From positions 1,260-65,259 of the forward strand of contig DAOUGB010000089.1 in the NCBI GenBank assembly GCA_034429595.1: a DNA stretch of 64,000 bases, read 5' to 3'. Source of the stretch: Dehalococcoidales bacterium (lineage in GTDB: Bacteria > Chloroflexota > Dehalococcoidia > Dehalococcoidales > RBG-16-60-22). The notes beneath the pieces were generated by a model, which saw only the letters and a program-made list of their open reading frames with translations, did no database searches and was not told the origin of the DNA. Shown piece by piece: positions 1,997 to 64,000 of the stretch (position 1 is the first letter of the stretch; each line of letters opens with the position of its first letter). The translations under genes were made by a program, and so were the position numbers.

Positions 1997-3322
1997 ATGG
2001 ATAAAAAATGGTCGGAATTGACTCCGGCGGAAAAGCGGGAGAAGCGGTTTGGCGATTGGCTGAAGCCTCCTACCGGATTTAACAGCCCGGCCGCGGCAAA
2101 AGCCTACGATACCCGTATCAAGAGACTGGCGGATACGCTCCTCATGAAAAAGACGGACCGGGTGCCGGTCACGCTGCCGGTGGATAATTTCCCGGCGCTC
2201 TATTACGGCTCGTCGGTCCACGAGGTGATGTACGATTATGACGCGCTTTATAGCGTCTGGAAAAAATTCCTGAATGATTTTGAAATGGATACGGTTTCCG
2301 GCCCCGGCATGGTCTACCCGGCCAGGGTGCTGGACATCGTCGATTATAAACTGTATGCCTGGCCCGGCCACGGGCTGCCCTTAAACGCCAACGGTCACCA
2401 GTTCGTCGAAGGGGAATACATGACGGCGGACGAGTATGATGCCCTGATTACCGACCCATCCGATTATTTAATGCGGGTGTTTCTGCCCCGGGCTATGGGT
2501 TCTTTAAAAGCCTTCAGCAAACTGCCGTCCCTTACCTCCCTTCTCGGCAAGCCCCAGGCTTTATTGATGGCGGCGGGACAGCCGGACGTGCAGGCCGCTT
2601 TCCAGGCGCTGGCGGACGCCGGGCGGGAAATGAACAGGTACCAGCAGATAGTCATGAGGTTCGGTGAAGAGGCGCAGACCGCCGGTTATCCCTCCATCAG
2701 GGGCGGGGTAGCGATGGCGCCGTTCGATTCCCTGGGCGATGCGCTGCGCGGCACCAAGGGCGTTATCATGGACATGTACCGCCGCCCGGAGAAAGTCCTC
2801 AAAGCCGTGGAGGTGATTACGGATTTTGCCATCCGCAACACCATCGAGCAGATGAACCAGACGGGCGGCGTGATGGTCACTTTCCCCCTGCATAAAGGCG
2901 ATGATACCTTCATGTCCGCTACCCAGTTCGATAAATTCTACTGGCCTTCCCTAAAGAGATTCATCCTTGCCTTGATTGATGAAGGCATCATGGTTTCCCT
3001 CTTCGCCGAGGGGAAATACAACAGCCGCCTCGAACGCGTTAAAGACCTGCCTTCCGGCTGGATACTCTGGCACTTCGACCAGACGGATATGACGCGGGCC
3101 AAGCAGGCCCTCGGCAATACCCAGTGCCTGGCCGGCAACGTACCCTCCTCGCTGATGTGCACCGGCACGCCGGAAGACGTGAAGGAATACTGCCGGAAGC
3201 TCATCGAGCTTTGTGCCGAAGACGGCGGCTATATTTTAACCGGCGGCGCCAGCTGCGCGGAAGTGAAGGCGGAAAACCTGCGCGCGATGATGGCCGCCGC
3301 CAAAGAATACGGGAAGTTTTAA
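1997..3322 (+). CDS. URO-D family protein, putative corrinoid-dependent methyltransferase, paralog 2
   Basis: ATG at 1997 gives MDKKWSELTPAEKREKRF. Shares PLHKGDDTFMS, CLAGNVP and CRKLIELCAEDGGYIL with its siblings. Confidence 0.8.
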   Translation: MDKKWSELTPAEKREKRFGDWLKPPTGFNSPAAAKAYDTRIKRLADTLLMKKTDRVPVTLPVDNFPALYYGSSVHEVMYDYDALYSVWKKFLNDFEMDTVSGPGMVYPARVLDIVDYKLYAWPGHGLPLNANGHQFVEGEYMTADEYDALITDPSDYLMRVFLPRAMGSLKAFSKLPSLTSLLGKPQALLMAAGQPDVQAAFQALADAGREMNRYQQIVMRFGEEAQTAGYPSIRGGVAMAPFDSLGDALRGTKGVIMDMYRRPEKVLKAVEVITDFAIRNTIEQMNQTGGVMVTFPLHKGDDTFMSATQFDKFYWPSLKRFILALIDEGIMVSLFAEGKYNSRLERVKDLPSGWILWHFDQTDMTRAKQALGNTQCLAGNVPSSLMCTGTPEDVKEYCRKLIELCAEDGGYILTGGASCAEVKAENLRAMMAAAKEYGKF

Positions 3323-3435
3323 GGAGAAAAGGGAATAGCAGACGGTATTCCAGGTAACCTCCCTTACCCGAGCCTGTAAACTGTTAACCGAAAACGGCAA
3401 ACGTTGTTGGTCATTGAAGAAGGAGGCGTATCATC

Positions 3436-4779
3436 ATGGCTGAAACTAAAAACTGGGAAGAAATGACCTGGCAGGAAAAGCGGGAGGCGCGCTTTGAACG
3501 GTGGATGAATCCTCCGGACGTAAAATTCGTCAGCAAGGAAGCGGAACAGCTTTATAAAGCGCGTGTCAAAAGATTTATTAAAGCCATCAAGCTGGAAGAA
3601 CCGGACCGCGTGCCGGTCATGCTCCCCACCGGGAACTACCCGGCTTACTGGGGCGGCGCGTCCTTCCGCACGCTGATGTATGATTATGATAAAGGCACGG
3701 AAATCTGGAAGAAATATTTAAAAGCCTTCGGGGACATGGACACCTTTAACGGGCCATCCCTCGTCCCCTCCGGCAAAATAGCGGCGGAGCTTCCCTCCAA
3801 GCTCCAGAAGCTGCCCGGCCTCGGCCTGCCGGAAGACGCCACCATGAACCAGTTCGTCGAAGGCGAGTACATGATGGCGGATGAATATGATAAATACATG
3901 ATGGACCCGTCCGATTATAACCTCCGCACCATGCTGCCCCGCACCTCTCCCTTCTTCGAGGCGTTCAGGCGGCTGCCGCCCATCCGTTCGCTGATGGGCA
4001 CATCCTGGGTCTCCATCATGGCCGACCCGGATATCCAGAAAATCATCAAGACCCTTTCGGGCCTGGTGGATGAGCAGAATAAATGGATGAAAGCCAATTT
4101 TGAAATCAACCAGTGGATTAAAGAGCAGGGATATCCTTCACTGTTCGGCGGCGGCATCATGGCGGGCGCGCCCTTCGACCATTTTGCCGATGCGTTACGC
4201 GGCACGCAGGGCATCGCCCGGGACATGTTCCGCCAGCCCAAGAAGCTGCATGAAGCCATGGAATGCTATCTCAAACTGACCATCGAGACCACCATTAAGA
4301 ACTTCCCGATGACCGCCTGCCCCATCTGCATGATGCCGCTGCACAAAGGCGATGACTGCTTCATGTCGGACAAGCAGTTCGCGGAGTTTTACTGGCCCAC
4401 TTACCGCCGGCTGCTGCTGGCGATGGTCAATGAAGGCCTGGTGCCGATGCCGTTCGCGGAAGGGCGCTATACCAACCGGCTCAAACAGATTAACGATACA
4501 CCGCCGAGCGGCGTGGTCTGGTACTTCGACCAGACGGACATGAAGGAAGCCAAGCGGATTCTCGGCGATGTTTGCTGTATCGCCGGTAACGTGCCCACCT
4601 CCGTTGTCATCAAGGGTACCGTCCAGCAGGTGAAGGACTACTGCAAGAAATTGATTGATGACTGCGCGCCGGGCGGCGGCTTTATCCTGGCTGGCGGCGC
4701 CAGCATCGATAACGGCAAGATGGAAAACCTCAAGGCCATGATGGACGCGGCCAAAGAATACGGGGTGTACAAGAAATAA
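3436..4779 (+). CDS. URO-D family protein, putative corrinoid-dependent methyltransferase, paralog 3
   Basis: GGAGG lies upstream of the ATG. Shows the same conserved blocks as its siblings. Confidence 0.8.
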   Translation: MAETKNWEEMTWQEKREARFERWMNPPDVKFVSKEAEQLYKARVKRFIKAIKLEEPDRVPVMLPTGNYPAYWGGASFRTLMYDYDKGTEIWKKYLKAFGDMDTFNGPSLVPSGKIAAELPSKLQKLPGLGLPEDATMNQFVEGEYMMADEYDKYMMDPSDYNLRTMLPRTSPFFEAFRRLPPIRSLMGTSWVSIMADPDIQKIIKTLSGLVDEQNKWMKANFEINQWIKEQGYPSLFGGGIMAGAPFDHFADALRGTQGIARDMFRQPKKLHEAMECYLKLTIETTIKNFPMTACPICMMPLHKGDDCFMSDKQFAEFYWPTYRRLLLAMVNEGLVPMPFAEGRYTNRLKQINDTPPSGVVWYFDQTDMKEAKRILGDVCCIAGNVPTSVVIKGTVQQVKDYCKKLIDDCAPGGGFILAGGASIDNGKMENLKAMMDAAKEYGVYKK

Positions 4780-29967: not shown

Positions 29968-30083
29968 AAATCCCTCTCTCACTCTCCCCTTGCGAAGGGG
30001 AGAGGATGATTAGTCAAGCCATTTTATCATTGGTTATATAATAATCTTTCCCTCCTTCGTAAGGAGGGATTAAGGGAGATTTA
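29968..30083. repeat. Type-B composite double-hairpin MITE-like element, copy 1
   Basis: AAATCCCTCTCTCACTCTCCCC-TTGCGAA-GGGGAGAGGATGATTAG, an AT-rich spacer, then TTCCCTCCTT-CGTA-AGGAGGGATTAAGGGAGATTTA. It fills the gap between the reductase stop and the cupin C start. Confidence 0.8.
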
Positions 30084-51136: not shown

Positions 51137-51349
51137 TCAGCCTTTCTTGGGGGCCGGTTTTTCCAGCGTAATCGCTTTAAAGCTGCAAGCCTCCACGCAC
51201 TTGCCGCAGGAAATGCAGCCTTCTTTCACCGTGCTTTTCATATCCACCAGTTCCAGCACGTTCACCGGGCAGACGTAGGTGCAGGCCCCGCACCCCGTAC
51301 ATTTTAACCTGTCTATTTTTACGCCCAAGGTCTTAAATCCCTCTCTCAC
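51137..51349 (-). CDS. 4Fe-4S dicluster ferredoxin
   Basis: Has CTGCGACTYVCP and CISCGKCVEAC. The real start may be TTG 51328, because the first 7 codons of the track ORF lie inside a type-B repeat. Confidence 0.7.
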   Translation of the reverse strand: MREGFKTLGVKIDRLKCTGCGACTYVCPVNVLELVDMKSTVKEGCISCGKCVEACSFKAITLEKPAPKKG

Positions 51350-51449
51350 TCTCCCTTTTTCAAAGGGAGAAGATGATTAGCTAAACCATATTATCTTTGT
51401 TTATATTCAATCTTCCCCTCTTTAGAAAAGAGGGGCAAGGGGAGATTTA
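51335..51449. repeat. Type-B composite double-hairpin MITE-like element, copy 3
   Basis: AAATCCCTCTCTCACTCTCCCTTTTTCAAAGGGAGAAGATGATTAG, a spacer, then CCCCTCTTT-AGAAA-AGAGGGGCAAGGGGAGATTTA. Its terminal TTA is the complement of the etfB stop codon. Confidence 0.8.
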
Positions 51450-58731: not shown

Positions 58732-59223
58732 ATGAATAAGAAGGAACTAATCCGCCAGGCCATCGGATTTCAGAAAGAAATTGACCGGTTGATTATGTAT
58801 TTCAAAATCGAAGAATGGCTATCGCTTGACCTTACCATAGCCCAGCTAAAGAGCGTTATTTATATCTATCAAAAGAGGAAGGCCAGCTATAAGGAACTTG
58901 CCGAAGCGCTTAACGTAACACCGTCAGTAGTGACTGGAATTGTCGACCGGCTGGTAATACAGGGTATGGTAAAACGTAAGGTAGGAGATAAGTCAGCCGA
59001 CCGCCGCGTTCAATGGCTCGTAGTCACCGATAAGGGTAAAGCACTTCTTGATAACATACGGCAGCAAATGCACGTAAATATGGAACAAATATTAGAGACA
59101 ATGAGTATTGAAGACCTTTCAGCTATGATAAAAGGCTTTTCCTCTCTTATTAAAGCAGCTGGGACATTCCTTAAAAACTCAAGTAAGCCAGCCGGAATAG
59201 CTGCTAACCAGGAAGAATTCTGA
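58732..59223 (+). CDS. MarR-family transcriptional regulator
   Basis: Winged-HTH pattern (LTIAQLKSVIYI...YKELAEALNVTPSVVTGIVDRLV..G.V.R..D..DRR). Confidence 0.8.
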   Translation: MNKKELIRQAIGFQKEIDRLIMYFKIEEWLSLDLTIAQLKSVIYIYQKRKASYKELAEALNVTPSVVTGIVDRLVIQGMVKRKVGDKSADRRVQWLVVTDKGKALLDNIRQQMHVNMEQILETMSIEDLSAMIKGFSSLIKAAGTFLKNSSKPAGIAANQEEF

Positions 59224-59257
59224 AAACAGCGGGCTGATATTATTCATTGGAGGTTAA

Positions 59258-59377
59258 ATGAACGAGGGAAATTATACCGGGCTAATCGTACTTGGCAGTA
59301 TTATTGTGCTTTGTATCATCGGAGTAATCGTCTACTCGATAGTAAAGCGGGTGAAAAAACACAATAAGCCGGAATAA
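59258..59377 (+). CDS. Possible 39-aa single-TM micro-protein
   Basis: MNEGNYTGLIVLGSIIVLCIIGVIVYSIVKRVKKHNKPE. GGAGG lies 5 nt upstream. Confidence 0.4.
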   Translation: MNEGNYTGLIVLGSIIVLCIIGVIVYSIVKRVKKHNKPE

Positions 59378-59501
59378 ATCATCGTCTGATTAAAAACAGC
59401 TTAATCAGGAAGGAAAGATTATAGCGATTCGTGAACCTGCACAATTTATTTCTCCCTTAGTAGGCAGAATGTGAAATTATTGTATTCAGGGTTGATGTGC
59501 G

Positions 59502-60425
59502 ATGAAAGAAACACGCATCAGGAAAAGCTATCATTCCAGACGCTGGAGGTTGCCGGTCATTCTGGTGTTCGTCCTCATTATCAATATCGTAGTGGGGCTA
59601 TCGGTAACTTCTGTAGGTGTAGCCTCGGAACTTGGTGCCGGCGGGCATCCTCTGTACGCCGGCACCGATTTATCAGCAGTGCCGGAGTCCGTAGCTGATG
59701 ACGCCGTCCAATTAGCTGGCCGGCTATTCGGTGATATTGGAGAGGAATCCCAAAATTTCATAGACGAACTGCTGTCTATGTATGTGGAATCTCAAGATAA
59801 AGACGTGCTGCTACTTTTCAATCCCGGCGGCTGGGGAAACAACCTTCCGGAAACGGATACAGGCTGGGGGAGTATCCTGAATGGAATACAAGGGCAATTG
59901 TCTGCTTCCGGCATCGATTCTCTGGTACTAACATACCAGCGTACCGCGGATAATTTCTTCGGCCATTGTGAGGAGTTTGTGGAGATGTTTCTGAACTACT
60001 CATCCAAGGCAGAAGACCTGGCTTCACGCATAGAGTTCTTGACCGTACAAAACCCCGATCTCAAGGTAGTGGTTACCGGGGAGAGCATGGGTACGCTCAT
60101 CAGCGGCGAGGTTATGGATATCCTGTCCCAAAACCCGCAGGTCTTTAGTATCCAGACCGGACCGCCCCCCTGGTACCGGGGCGAAAATACAGACCGGACA
60201 CTGGTTATCGCCGATAACGGAATTGTTCCTGACTCCTTCAGCCGGGGCGATGTATTGACGATAATCAAGGCTAACCTGACTGCCCTGTTTAACCTATCTT
60301 CGTCTGAAAAAAGCCAGGGTACGGTGCTGAAACTTTTTCAATCTCCGGGTCATGATTATTCCTGGCAATACCCGGCTGTCTCTTCACAGATAACGGGGTT
60401 CCTGAAGAATACGGTCGGTCGATAA
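59502..60425 (+). CDS. Hypothetical membrane-anchored protein, possible alpha/beta hydrolase (GESMG nucleophile-elbow-like motif)
   Basis: Has an N-terminal TM helix, and VVVTGESMGT resembles GxSxG. Confidence 0.35.
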   Translation: MKETRIRKSYHSRRWRLPVILVFVLIINIVVGLSVTSVGVASELGAGGHPLYAGTDLSAVPESVADDAVQLAGRLFGDIGEESQNFIDELLSMYVESQDKDVLLLFNPGGWGNNLPETDTGWGSILNGIQGQLSASGIDSLVLTYQRTADNFFGHCEEFVEMFLNYSSKAEDLASRIEFLTVQNPDLKVVVTGESMGTLISGEVMDILSQNPQVFSIQTGPPPWYRGENTDRTLVIADNGIVPDSFSRGDVLTIIKANLTALFNLSSSEKSQGTVLKLFQSPGHDYSWQYPAVSSQITGFLKNTVGR

Positions 60426-60472: not shown

Positions 60473-62104
60473 TTATTCCCAGAGTTTTTCCAGGTCATCA
60501 TCGGGCTTTTTACCGGCAGGCGGCTGGCTCTCCGGCGTAAAGCTGCTGTAGGATTTGGCGGAGCCGTACTCGCGGGGCTGGAAAGCCACCGGCATGGGCA
60601 CGGCGTGCCCGAAGATGAGCGCCTGCTGCTTGGGGGCGAGACGGGCTAAAACGGACTTAAGCTCGTTCTTGCCGGAGACGCCCGCGAGGACGCTATCGAT
60701 ATCCTTTTCATTATCCAGGAGGCAGGTTATCTTGGTGCCGAGCTGGGACATGATGTCATCATAAATGCCGGAGGGACGCTGGTCGATGACGAGCAGGGTG
60801 ACGTTGTATTTGCGCATCTCCCGCGCGATGGTGCCGAAGATGGTCTGCCCGGCCACCTCCGGGTTGAGGAACTTGTGCGCTTCCTCGATGGTGATGACCA
60901 GCGGGTTGGGCTTGGCGCTATCTTCCGCCTCGGCTTTTTCCGTGCGTTCTTGATATTTTTGATAAATACGTCTGGCAAGCATATTGGCCACGAGAATATA
61001 GGAGGTTATATCTTGGTGGCGACCGAATTCCAGCACAACGTTTATACCCCGGTCGAGGTGGTCGATGATGCTTTTCACGGCGTCTGCTGGAGCATGGGGT
61101 TCGATAAAAGACAGCCGCCCGATGTTACTAAGGCCGCGTTTAAGGTTACCAAATGTCCCTTCATGAATAGATAAGGATTCAAGTAACTCTTTAATATCCT
61201 CTCCATTTTCGAGTTCGAGTGTCTTCTGTATCCAGCTTTTACCGAAGCGTCGCTCCAATTGATATACCGCTGCAACCGCTTGCTCGGTAAGGTTTAAAGT
61301 CTCGCGTAAAAGAGCGATATCGGCTGGTTCTATTTCATCGTAACCGATTTTTACCACAAAGTCAGGGCTGAAACCACGGCGTCTTGAACTTACTTCATCC
61401 AAAGAAAATATGGCCACTTTTGACTGTATAAACGGTAATTGCTTGAGACCTTTAACGCTGCCTCCGGTTCCTTCAAAAGTGCCTTTCCAGCCGTACTCGT
61501 TGTGCATATCGAAAATCAGGTTGACGGCCTTGCTTTTCTGCAGCATCCCGATGAGCAGGATACGCGTCAGGAAGGTCTTGCCGGTGCCGCTCTTGCCGAA
61601 GATGCCGTTGGAGCGCTTGACGAACTCCTCCAGGTTGAGGCAGAGCTTGGTCTCCATATCCAGCGGGTTACCGATGAAGAATCTTTGCTTGTCCTCCTCC
61701 CCGAAGACAAGCTCCATATCCCGTTCCGTAGCCAGGTTGACGGTGGAGAAGTGGGCGGGGATGGTCTTGACGGGCTGGGGGCCTTCCAGCGTGGCATCAA
61801 CATCGCCGCCGATGGTGAGCATGGGGGTAACGTGTATCTGCCCGAAGGTGCTGGTGCCGGAGAGAACATCTTTCATAAAGGGGTCGGCGACATCGGGCGG
61901 GGAAACGGAGAGGCGCTCGTCGGTGTACTTCAGGCTGACGTCCGTAATCATCCCGAAGAAGCGGCGCTTCTGCCCCTCGATGGTCACGTAGCGCCCCACC
62001 ACCATATCCTCCACGGAGACGGGGCTATCCAGCCGGACGTCCACGCCTTTTTCCAGCGAGGCCGAGGTAACGATACCGAGTTTTTGGTTATTTTCCGGGT
62101 TCAT
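60473..62104 (-). CDS. HerA/FtsK-superfamily ATPase (HerA-like, DUF87-type) with N-terminal HAS-barrel
   Basis: Has Walker A GKSGTGKT, Walker B LVITIEEAHKF and the HerA-typical LLVIDQRPSGI. ATG 62104 is preferred because the longer track ORF runs into a type-B repeat. Confidence 0.85.
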   Translation of the reverse strand: MNPENNQKLGIVTSASLEKGVDVRLDSPVSVEDMVVGRYVTIEGQKRRFFGMITDVSLKYTDERLSVSPPDVADPFMKDVLSGTSTFGQIHVTPMLTIGGDVDATLEGPQPVKTIPAHFSTVNLATERDMELVFGEEDKQRFFIGNPLDMETKLCLNLEEFVKRSNGIFGKSGTGKTFLTRILLIGMLQKSKAVNLIFDMHNEYGWKGTFEGTGGSVKGLKQLPFIQSKVAIFSLDEVSSRRRGFSPDFVVKIGYDEIEPADIALLRETLNLTEQAVAAVYQLERRFGKSWIQKTLELENGEDIKELLESLSIHEGTFGNLKRGLSNIGRLSFIEPHAPADAVKSIIDHLDRGINVVLEFGRHQDITSYILVANMLARRIYQKYQERTEKAEAEDSAKPNPLVITIEEAHKFLNPEVAGQTIFGTIAREMRKYNVTLLVIDQRPSGIYDDIMSQLGTKITCLLDNEKDIDSVLAGVSGKNELKSVLARLAPKQQALIFGHAVPMPVAFQPREYGSAKSYSSFTPESQPPAGKKPDDDLEKLWE

Positions 62105-62224
62105 TAAATTCTCCCTCTTATCCCTCCTTACGAAGGAGGGATGATGATTGAATATAACCAAGAGAACAATGGAATTAACCCATCATCCTCTCCCTTTGAA
62201 AAAGGGAGAGTGAGAGAGGGATTT
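62105..62224. repeat. Type-B composite double-hairpin MITE-like element, copy 4 (inverted orientation)
   Basis: The reverse complement aligns end to end with copies 1-3. It abuts the HerA ATG on one side and the stop codon of 62225..62806 on the other. Confidence 0.8.
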
Positions 62225-62806
62225 TTAAGACAGCCTCCCCAGGATGTTCTTCAGTTTAATAAAATCCGCGCTTAGTAAATTCGCCAGCTCTTTACCGGCC
62301 GCCACCAGGAAAGCGCGCGGGTCATCCTGCGCTTTACTTATCTGCCGCAGCGCCGCGGCGATGATTTCTTCCTGGGCAACCGGCAGGGCGGCGTTAAGTA
62401 AAATATTGAGGAAGCCGAAGCTCCGGCTGAATTCTGCGACTTCCTCCGGCGGGCATAAATAGACAAAACTGTGGAGTCTGGCGGGTGTGGGTGGAAGATA
62501 TTGAAAGACTTTATCCCCGTCTTTAAAGCCTACCGCCGCCGCCGTGAACGCGCTGCGCAGCAGCTTGGTGAGCTGGGGCGACGACTGGTAGACGGCCTCT
62601 TCTGTTGCTTCGTCTTTGCCCCGCGCCACCGGCTTGCGCCCGGTGTCCAGTCCGGCGGTCTCCGCGTGGCAGACGATGCCGTAAATATCACCGGCTTTCA
62701 CCAGCGCCCCGAGGGGCGGCAGCTCATAAAGCTCGTAGCTCTGGGCGGTGAACCCGCCGGTCTCCGCCGCGATAATTTCCGCGATTTTATCTTGTTTTTG
62801 AGGCAT
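62225..62806 (-). CDS. Hypothetical 193-aa protein, possible HAS-barrel-like partner of the HerA-like ATPase
   Basis: ORF with plausible coding composition. The N-terminal 60 aa follow the same beta-barrel-like hydrophobic pattern as the ATPase N-terminus. I recognise no family. Confidence 0.55.
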   Translation of the reverse strand: MPQKQDKIAEIIAAETGGFTAQSYELYELPPLGALVKAGDIYGIVCHAETAGLDTGRKPVARGKDEATEEAVYQSSPQLTKLLRSAFTAAAVGFKDGDKVFQYLPPTPARLHSFVYLCPPEEVAEFSRSFGFLNILLNAALPVAQEEIIAAALRQISKAQDDPRAFLVAAGKELANLLSADFIKLKNILGRLS

Positions 62807-62999: not shown

Positions 63000-63831
63000 C
63001 TACCTTTGCTGCCCATTAAAGACCTCCTGTATTATAGTATCTATGTCCGCTTCTTGTTTGGTTTCTTGAGGTTGATTTTTTCTAGTAGAAACAGCTCTTT
63101 TTTTCTTGTTATCGGTCACTGATATCTTTAATTTTTCCATCTCCGCTAAAGATGCTTCATTTAATAAGCGACGTACAGAGCCGATTATTTCTTCAGGTGT
63201 GACTGTAACATCAGTGCTTCTTTTTAATTTCCGACGTAATAAGTTGATAGAATCCTCAGATAATATTGTCTTGAGTATATTCTGTGTAGTTAAAACATTA
63301 CTCTTTACCCAAAGCTTTGATAAACCACTCTTTTTTAAATTTCTATATCCCACAAGTTCAAAATATTCAGCCAGTGAAGCAGGTTCCCCGGTCATTAAGT
63401 TCCATGAATTAATCAGTTGTATTTGCGGAGGTTTCCCGAAGGCAATATGATATAATCTCCACTCTTTTCCGTTTGTAAGTAAAACCCATTCACAGCCGCA
63501 ATTAATTGCATAAGACGAGGCTTGCTTAATATGTTTTGAAGAGAGGTCAATGTTTACTCTTTTTATCTCAACTAGCATATTTGGCGCAGAGGATTCATCC
63601 TCACCTATTTGCACAGCAAAGTCGCAATATTCTGTATCTCCAACACCATGAACTGCATGTTCTCTTGAAATGTGTGTTAATACATCATATCCCATAAGAG
63701 ACTCAAAAAATGCGTTCAATCCGCCTGCGGGTTTCTGCTTCATTGCCGTCTGCTTTCGCTACGGTCTCGATCATGTTCCTGGCATTAATAATAGCCTTTC
63801 TGATATCCTTGTCCAATTTTTGTCTAACCAT
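63000..63831 (-). pseudogene. PD-(D/E)xK nuclease, HsdR-N-terminal-domain-like, interrupted by a +1 frameshift in an A6/T6 run (63705-63710)
   Basis: The upstream frame from ATG 63831 (GGAG RBS) reads MVRQKLDKDIRKAIINARNMIETVAKADGNEAETRRRIERIF*. Removing one T restores ...RIERIFESLMGYDVLTHISRE..., which continues into the 247-aa track ORF. Motifs: NEAETR, CDFAV, LVEIKR, QASSYA. Confidence 0.7.
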
Positions 63832-63911: not shown

Positions 63912-64000
63912 TTACTTCTTCGTCACCTTCATGCCCACCGGGCACATCCTCATGCACGCCCCGATTAATGTGCACCCGAACGATGCTTTACCATCTTTAA
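63912..64000 (-). CDS. 3' end of an unidentified Cys-containing protein (partial, runs off window)
   Basis: The minus frame reads ...KDGKASFGCTLIGACMRMCPVGMKVTKK*. Only 29 codons are visible. Confidence 0.25.
   Translation of the reverse strand, partial: KDGKASFGCTLIGACMRMCPVGMKVTKK

Follow-up and report, generated by a model that had tools for sequence, protein, structure and literature searches.

A motor-less HAS-barrel protein as a probable third part of the NurA-HerA module of Chloroflexota

HerA hexamers act together with partner effectors, as NurA-HerA in DNA end resection and as Sir2-HerA and DUF4297-HerA in anti-phage defence. The HAS barrel (PF09378) is the N-terminal domain of HerA and of the F1/V1 ATPase subunits. 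Here, we analyzed a 64,000-nucleotide (nt) stretch of a Dehalococcoidales genome (assembly GCA_034429595.1, contig DAOUGB010000089.1, positions 1,260 to 65,259; the window), in which herA (60473-62104, minus strand) lies downstream of a gene for a 193-amino-acid (aa) protein that we call X (62225-62806, minus strand, 193 aa plus stop). We found that these two genes are the last two of a chromosomal NurA/X/HerA module typical of Chloroflexota, and that X is probably not the effector of a new two-gene defence system but a so far unstudied third component of a known machine for processing DNA ends.

The NurA-HerA system and its form in Chloroflexota

NurA-HerA complexes have been studied in D. 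radiodurans (7f6d, 7wrw and 7wrx), T. kodakarensis (9x1l and 9x1m) and S. solfataricus (4d2i). The HAS barrels of the HerA ring are the docking site of NurA dimers; the contact is acidic-to-basic in Deinococcus (PMC9960219) and in Thermococcus runs through the alpha1 helices and the loops preceding them (PMC12977600). The module described here resembles these two-component systems in having a HAS-barrel HerA ATPase and, upstream on the same strand, a PF09376 NurA of ~400 aa, and it differs from them in a conserved third gene, X, placed between nurA and herA. No barrel-only accessory partner of NurA-HerA was found described in a full-text search of the open-access literature, and we regard the module as a three-part variant of NurA-HerA, the mechanism of which can only be inferred.

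The distribution of the three genes was determined in 201 sampled genomes of the class and that of X also by profile search in 251 genomes of the phylum, and gene order was scored in 80 species-level loci fetched with a HerA alignment. X was found in 116 genomes of the class sample, HerA in 118 and NurA in 119, with almost full overlap; the three genomes with HerA only have herA at a contig edge, and the extra NurA matches are weak matches in other families. Across the phylum, X was present in 107 of the 251 genomes, and most families have it in all or none of their members. The first-pass annotation of the window, which was made from the letters and their translations, had proposed X as a partner of HerA, and conservation of the pair bears this out, as in 72 of the 80 loci X is the gene immediately preceding herA on the same strand, with a gap of at most 60 nt in 58 of these 72, and four of the other eight loci have less than 500 nt of upstream sequence. 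The nurA gene was found upstream on the same strand in 48 of the 80 loci (gap of at most 120 nt in 27). The usual order in Chloroflexota is nurA-X-herA, often with overlapping genes, and locus L040 shows the compact form, with nurA at 911-2110, X overlapping it at 2101-2709 and herA at 2756-4396.

In two families, the operon is split: f38 keeps nurA and X together with herA elsewhere, and f62 keeps X and herA together with nurA elsewhere. Because of this two-sided linkage, which is the strongest genomic argument that we have, X appears to work with both NurA and HerA. The two splits represent two independent ways of breaking the operon.

The same families bear on the main rival explanation, a decoy or regulatory role of X: by binding the NurA dimer or capping the barrel face of HerA, it would keep the nuclease away from the motor until DNA damage or some other signal sets it free. 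X staying beside nurA when herA is elsewhere, as in f38, would suit such a decoy, and so would the mild acidity of its barrel (mean net charge -2.9), which resembles that of the HerA N-terminus (-4.8), given that bacterial NurA presents a basic face to the acidic face of HerA (PMC9960219). A 372-aa predicted protein from a metagenome (P0251), representing a single cluster, joins the C-terminal half of NurA to a complete X in one open reading frame (ORF), which speaks for an association of X with NurA in general and also for a decoy; it may represent a genuine fusion, but also a gene call cut short or a frameshift. However, X stays with herA in f62, where nurA is elsewhere, and in most species X and herA overlap tightly, which points to equimolar co-assembly rather than to a titrating inhibitor. 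We consider a decoy or regulator unlikely.

All 80 loci are labelled Chloroflexota except for one metagenome-assembled genome (MAG), L081, labelled Acidobacteriota and placed in the phylum sample of the window genome. The search covered this phylum, and the Acidobacteriota-labelled MAG, which falls in its sample, is no evidence for a spread of X beyond Chloroflexota. A second MAG with the module, labelled Sphingomonadaceae (L131), was also placed in the phylum of the window genome, and it is likely that both labels are wrong or that the bins are mixed.

Fold and relatives of protein X

X in the window has no match in Pfam, PADLOC or NCBIfam, and none in the PDB by sequence, and its fold matches include no enzyme fold, so that no effector identity of the Sir2 or DUF4297 type was found for it. 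Homologues are nevertheless numerous, with 2597 at E <= 0.001 from a single-sequence query and 2975 from a profile query, and the family comprises 657 clusters at 50% identity. The ratio of nonsynonymous to synonymous substitution rates (dN/dS) of X is 0.12-0.20 against three relatives, indicating purifying selection.

An AlphaFold2 (AF2) model of X built from 66 sequences (predicted local distance difference test, pLDDT, 85; predicted template-modelling score, pTM, 0.78) has a beta barrel at residues 7-117 and five helices at 120-192, with a poorly ordered, low-confidence loop at 55-68 within the barrel. Foldseek comparison of the model with the PDB gave 30 matches at E <= 0.001 (best E 2.2e-6), and all 50 matches listed are HerA chains, from NurA-HerA, TdpAB, DUF4297-HerA and SIR2-HerA complexes, with query-normalised template-modelling scores of 0.35-0.45 over 122-160 columns. 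PF09378 does not match X of the window even at E <= 10 and leaves it below the Pfam gathering score, and it does match 29 of 58 diverse family members at E <= 1 (best E 2.7e-9). The barrel-like N-terminus that the first-pass annotation had suspected from an alternating residue pattern is thus confirmed, and the model also contains the helical tail that it had noted. X is a HAS barrel without the ATPase or P-loop part, fused to a five-helix domain. The barrel (residues 7-117; 62456-62788, minus strand) stands alone. It resembles the HAS-barrel domain in fold, with half of the sampled family members resembling it in sequence as well, and it differs from known HAS-barrel proteins in lacking a P-loop domain, in its own conserved loop motifs and in the fused five-helix domain that has no relative in the PDB.

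The most conserved positions of the family are E10, P30, G33, R57, P77, L82, position 85 (Thr in most members, Ser in X of the window), P105, P108 and H112. The loop at 55-68 carries the family motif DPGRRPxARG, in which 90% or more of the sampled family members have R57, and a second motif, LPPxPxRxH, spans residues 104-112. In the model, R57 lies in the flexible loop before alpha1, and P77 in a short helix (77-80) that the model splits off.

The helical domain (residues 118-193; 62228-62455, minus strand) is a compact five-helix domain, and residues 116-193 folded alone from 70 sequences reached a pLDDT of 94.5. Foldseek found nothing for it in the PDB at E <= 0.001 (best E 3.0), with no HerA chain among its 29 matches. 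We therefore rejected the idea that the tail is a relic of the HerA helix bundle, since it matches neither HerA nor any other PDB entry significantly; it is a small domain with no solved relative.

Homology between X and its own HerA was also sought by sequence. The full-length hhalign alignment was spurious (probability 0.8%); against the N-terminal 130 residues of HerA, X 4-56 aligned on HerA 5-64, which weakly recovers the register that the first-pass annotation had proposed and is the right register without being significant (E 0.0088, probability 4.6%).

Pfam contains no entry for X itself but does contain a sister family, a domain of unknown function, DUF8166 (PF26500). Alignment of the X family with 30 DUF8166 proteins by hhalign gave a probability of 97.8% and an E value of 8.9e-13 over 161 columns that cover the barrel and the helices. 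DUF8166 counts ~3600 proteins with a precomputed PF26500 match; like X, its members are ~200 aa long, and their genes immediately precede a DUF87/HerA gene and in some cases follow nurA. No precomputed PF26500 match is listed for the X homologues, and the X family forms a sister subfamily outside the capture of the PF26500 model. As judged by profile comparison, X is a remote homologue of DUF8166 and not a scored member. The weakest X-like matches in other Chloroflexota (L131-L133) carry a precomputed PF26500 match and have herA directly downstream or nurA directly upstream, and the DUF8166-type gene of L131 has both, herA downstream and nurA upstream.

In a Caldilineaceae locus (L136:4192-8435), the DUF8166 gene and herA lie ~2.8 kb apart with several small genes of toxin-antitoxin type (DUF2442, DUF433 and DUF5615) between them, and the DUF8166 gene is closely preceded by a gene for a HigB-type toxin.

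Gene order in the window genome

Both ORFs of the pair proved real and lie on the minus strand at the positions that the first-pass annotation had assigned. The herA gene encodes 543 aa from an ATG at 62104, preceded by a GGAGG/GAGGGAG ribosome-binding site; a TTG at 62161 would give 562 aa, and we took the shorter form because relatives align from residues 2-8 of it. The protein matches DUF87 (PF01935, E 1.5e-27) and, over residues 29-122 of the 562-aa frame, the HAS barrel (PF09378, E 1e-7), for which it scores 32.3 bits where 25.2 is the cut-off. Its translation shows the HerA-type QRPS motif (VIDQRPSG) as well as Walker A (GKSGTGKT) and Walker B (VITIEEAH), all invariant in the alignment of relatives, in agreement with the earlier description of an ATPase with its own N-terminal barrel. 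By these sequence features, it is a standard HerA-family ATPase of the FtsK-HerA superfamily, with hexameric DNA translocation predicted.

The first-pass annotation had seen no NurA, Sir2 or DUF4297 partner, which holds for the window but, as regards NurA, fails for the genome. The contig of the window (C89) ends 103 nt past the window, and the single NurA gene of the genome (398 aa, PF09376, E values of 7.4e-28 and 2e-27) is found on a 2120-nt contig, C111. The last 131 nt of C89 are the exact reverse complement of the last 131 nt of C111, and this overlap covers window positions 63973-64000. In the joined contigs, a 269-aa ORF runs uninterrupted through the junction; its counterpart in the nearest complete relative (L001), a 273-aa gene also following nurA, shares 78% identity with it. 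From the contig overlap and the synteny with L001, nurA is placed at window-equivalent positions 64857-66053 (minus strand), which puts it ~2 kb upstream of X, and the order in this genome is nurA, the 269-aa gene, an AT-rich HSDR_N_2 gene, X, a repeat spacer and herA.

These results bear most directly on the proposal of the first-pass annotation, a self-contained two-gene HerA system in which X would be a new effector replacing NurA, Sir2 or DUF4297. It drew on the lack of a nuclease partner within the 64-kb window and on the uncharacterised state of X. Its conserved novel partner stands, but its two-gene form does not, as nurA is present in the genome, linked to the contig of the window on the same strand, X lies between nurA and herA in most relatives, and NurA co-occurs with X and HerA across the class. 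We saw no sign that X is an effector, as it has no enzymatic domain and consists of a motor-less copy of the docking domain of HerA with a small helical domain. We regard a self-contained two-gene system as very improbable.

X and herA are separated by a 120-nt spacer (62105-62224, minus strand) made of dispersed palindromic repeat units, which agrees with the earlier reading of a type-B repeat as the sole separation of the two genes. The spacer gave 64 blastn-short matches across the genome, on many contigs, and copies of its two hairpin units occur within the window at 30049-30069 and 51349-51372. Its predicted RNA fold has -54 kcal/mol (z -4.56), and the GGAGG that could otherwise serve as the ribosome-binding site of herA lies within its second hairpin. 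The spacer stands where most relatives have an overlap of X and herA or a short gap, and the translational coupling of other genomes appears to be lost here because this repeat and two unrelated genes intervene. An intrinsic terminator between X and herA was also considered and rejected, as there is only a weak consensus match, within chance expectation.

Both of the unrelated genes lie between nurA and X. The AT-rich gene (63000-63743, minus strand) encodes a 247-aa HSDR_N_2 or PD-(D/E)xK-like protein (PF13588, 3.7e-11) and has a GC content of 0.33-0.43 against 0.50-0.62 for its neighbours. It is absent at the corresponding position in L001 and L003 and found between nurA and X in the window genome only; it is not part of the module and looks like a recent insertion. 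The 269-aa ORF, which follows nurA and crosses the contig junction, has its 3′ end at 63912-64000 (minus strand) and continues at L006:1372-2120. It has no Pfam match and contains a Cys-rich stretch; it is absent at the same position in L003 and may be a lineage-specific operon passenger. The start of C111 overlaps another contig (C128) in the same manner as its end overlaps C89, and short contigs such as C111 are probably assembly-graph pieces around repeats or strain variants.

On the other side of herA, the opposite strand (58732-60425) encodes a 307-aa protein that weakly matches alpha/beta-hydrolases and a MarR-family regulator, between herA and a patatin gene. In close relatives, unlike in the window, the patatin gene adjoins herA directly. 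We rejected the patatin lipase as a member of the module, as only 9 of 64 loci have it behind herA, and it is no more than a local neighbour.

Proposed mechanism and cellular role

We favour, with some confidence, the prediction that X is a physical accessory subunit of the NurA-HerA nuclease-motor. X would be made together with HerA, because the two genes usually overlap or nearly abut, and its barrel would most likely assemble into or onto the ring of HerA barrels. X may thereby shape or adapt the platform and the DNA exit channel at the seat of NurA, with the helical domain supplying a lineage-specific contact, while the module would thread linear DNA through HerA for NurA to cut. In a more specific form, which we find possible but doubtful, six X barrels would form a ring stacked between the NurA dimer and the HerA hexamer, giving a NurA2-X6-HerA6 machine of three tiers. 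The additional ring would make the DNA channel longer or gate it, and would determine whether the nuclease receives one strand or both. If true, the X6 ring would act as an inbuilt switch in a complex for which the choice of strand is an open question.

Several observations weigh against X as an accessory subunit. HerA retains its own HAS barrel, so a second one is not obviously needed, and X shows no significant similarity in sequence to its own HerA. No X-HerA or NurA-X fusion ORF was found in the 80 loci; long frames that span X and HerA in two genomes (G026 and G151) were rejected as fusions, as the two genes are in different reading frames and the long frames are open-frame artefacts of high-GC DNA. 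In the window genome itself, the coupling is loosened, with the 120-nt structured repeat between X and herA and with ~2 kb and two genes between nurA and X, and the join of C89 and C111 rests on a 131-nt assembly overlap and synteny, not on a spanning read.

Whether NurA-HerA acts in repair or defence is still debated, and a 2026 study makes the case that both DNA strands are degraded by archaeal HerA-NurA, which may be antiviral or act on foreign DNA (PMC12977600). The three genes could likewise form an anti-phage or anti-foreign-DNA system like Sir2-HerA or DUF4297-HerA, with NurA as the effector and X as a sensor or adaptor. The best PDB sequence match of HerA is a SIR2-associated HerA (8wiv, 7.9e-22), with Thermococcus 9x1l and Sulfolobus 4d2i also matched and D. 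radiodurans HerA not among the matches at E <= 0.001. HerA also matches many PADLOC and NCBIfam HerA models (best PADLOC score 6e-33), and in the window genome a restriction-like nuclease gene, the AT-rich one, adjoins X. All of these model matches are below the equivalog cut-offs, however, and the anti-phage HerA models of NCBIfam are far from satisfied (NF042943, 79.5 bits against 800; NF042944, 58.9 against 850), just as X itself lacks a PADLOC match. The module resembles Sir2-HerA and DUF4297-HerA in pairing HerA with a partner encoded by an adjacent gene, and HerA chains of these systems are among the fold matches of X, but their partners are enzymes (NADase, nuclease) and the systems are patchy and mobile, whereas X is non-enzymatic, NurA is present and the module is chromosomal.

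The genomic setting also argues against defence. The NurA/X/HerA module is single-copy and its distribution is consistent with lineage, and near relatives keep it in housekeeping synteny, between secDF and patatin/plsC/ispH. A tblastn search with X found no relative in 72,556 plasmid or 50,697 phage records, the HerA profile found none in IMG/VR, and the dN/dS values of X show no diversifying pattern. The evidence leans to a chromosomal, vertically inherited module, and we hold a defence system to be quite improbable, more so than a decoy.

The genome of the window is 94% complete and encodes RecJ and SbcD, and no RecC was found in it and no AddA above the cut-off. Because no RecBCD or AddAB is shown in this genome, it is plausible that the NurA-HerA module is a main DNA end-processing machine there. 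This context without RecBCD is like that of Deinococcus, where a main end-processing role has been argued for NurA-HerA.

Structural studies of NurA-HerA have dealt with it solely as a machine of two proteins, and its strand choice is still argued (PMC12977600). Our analysis indicates that a whole phylum encodes a third, strongly conserved protein, usually and presumably co-translated, that copies the HerA domain on which NurA docks. For annotation, a gene that encodes only a barrel and precedes herA should not be taken for an orphan defence effector. If X proves to be a genuine subunit, a function would be assigned to a large unannotated family of ~3000 proteins and to its sister DUF8166 with ~3600, and the Chloroflexota complex would be a natural variant in which to study how a barrel ring controls nuclease docking and DNA exit.

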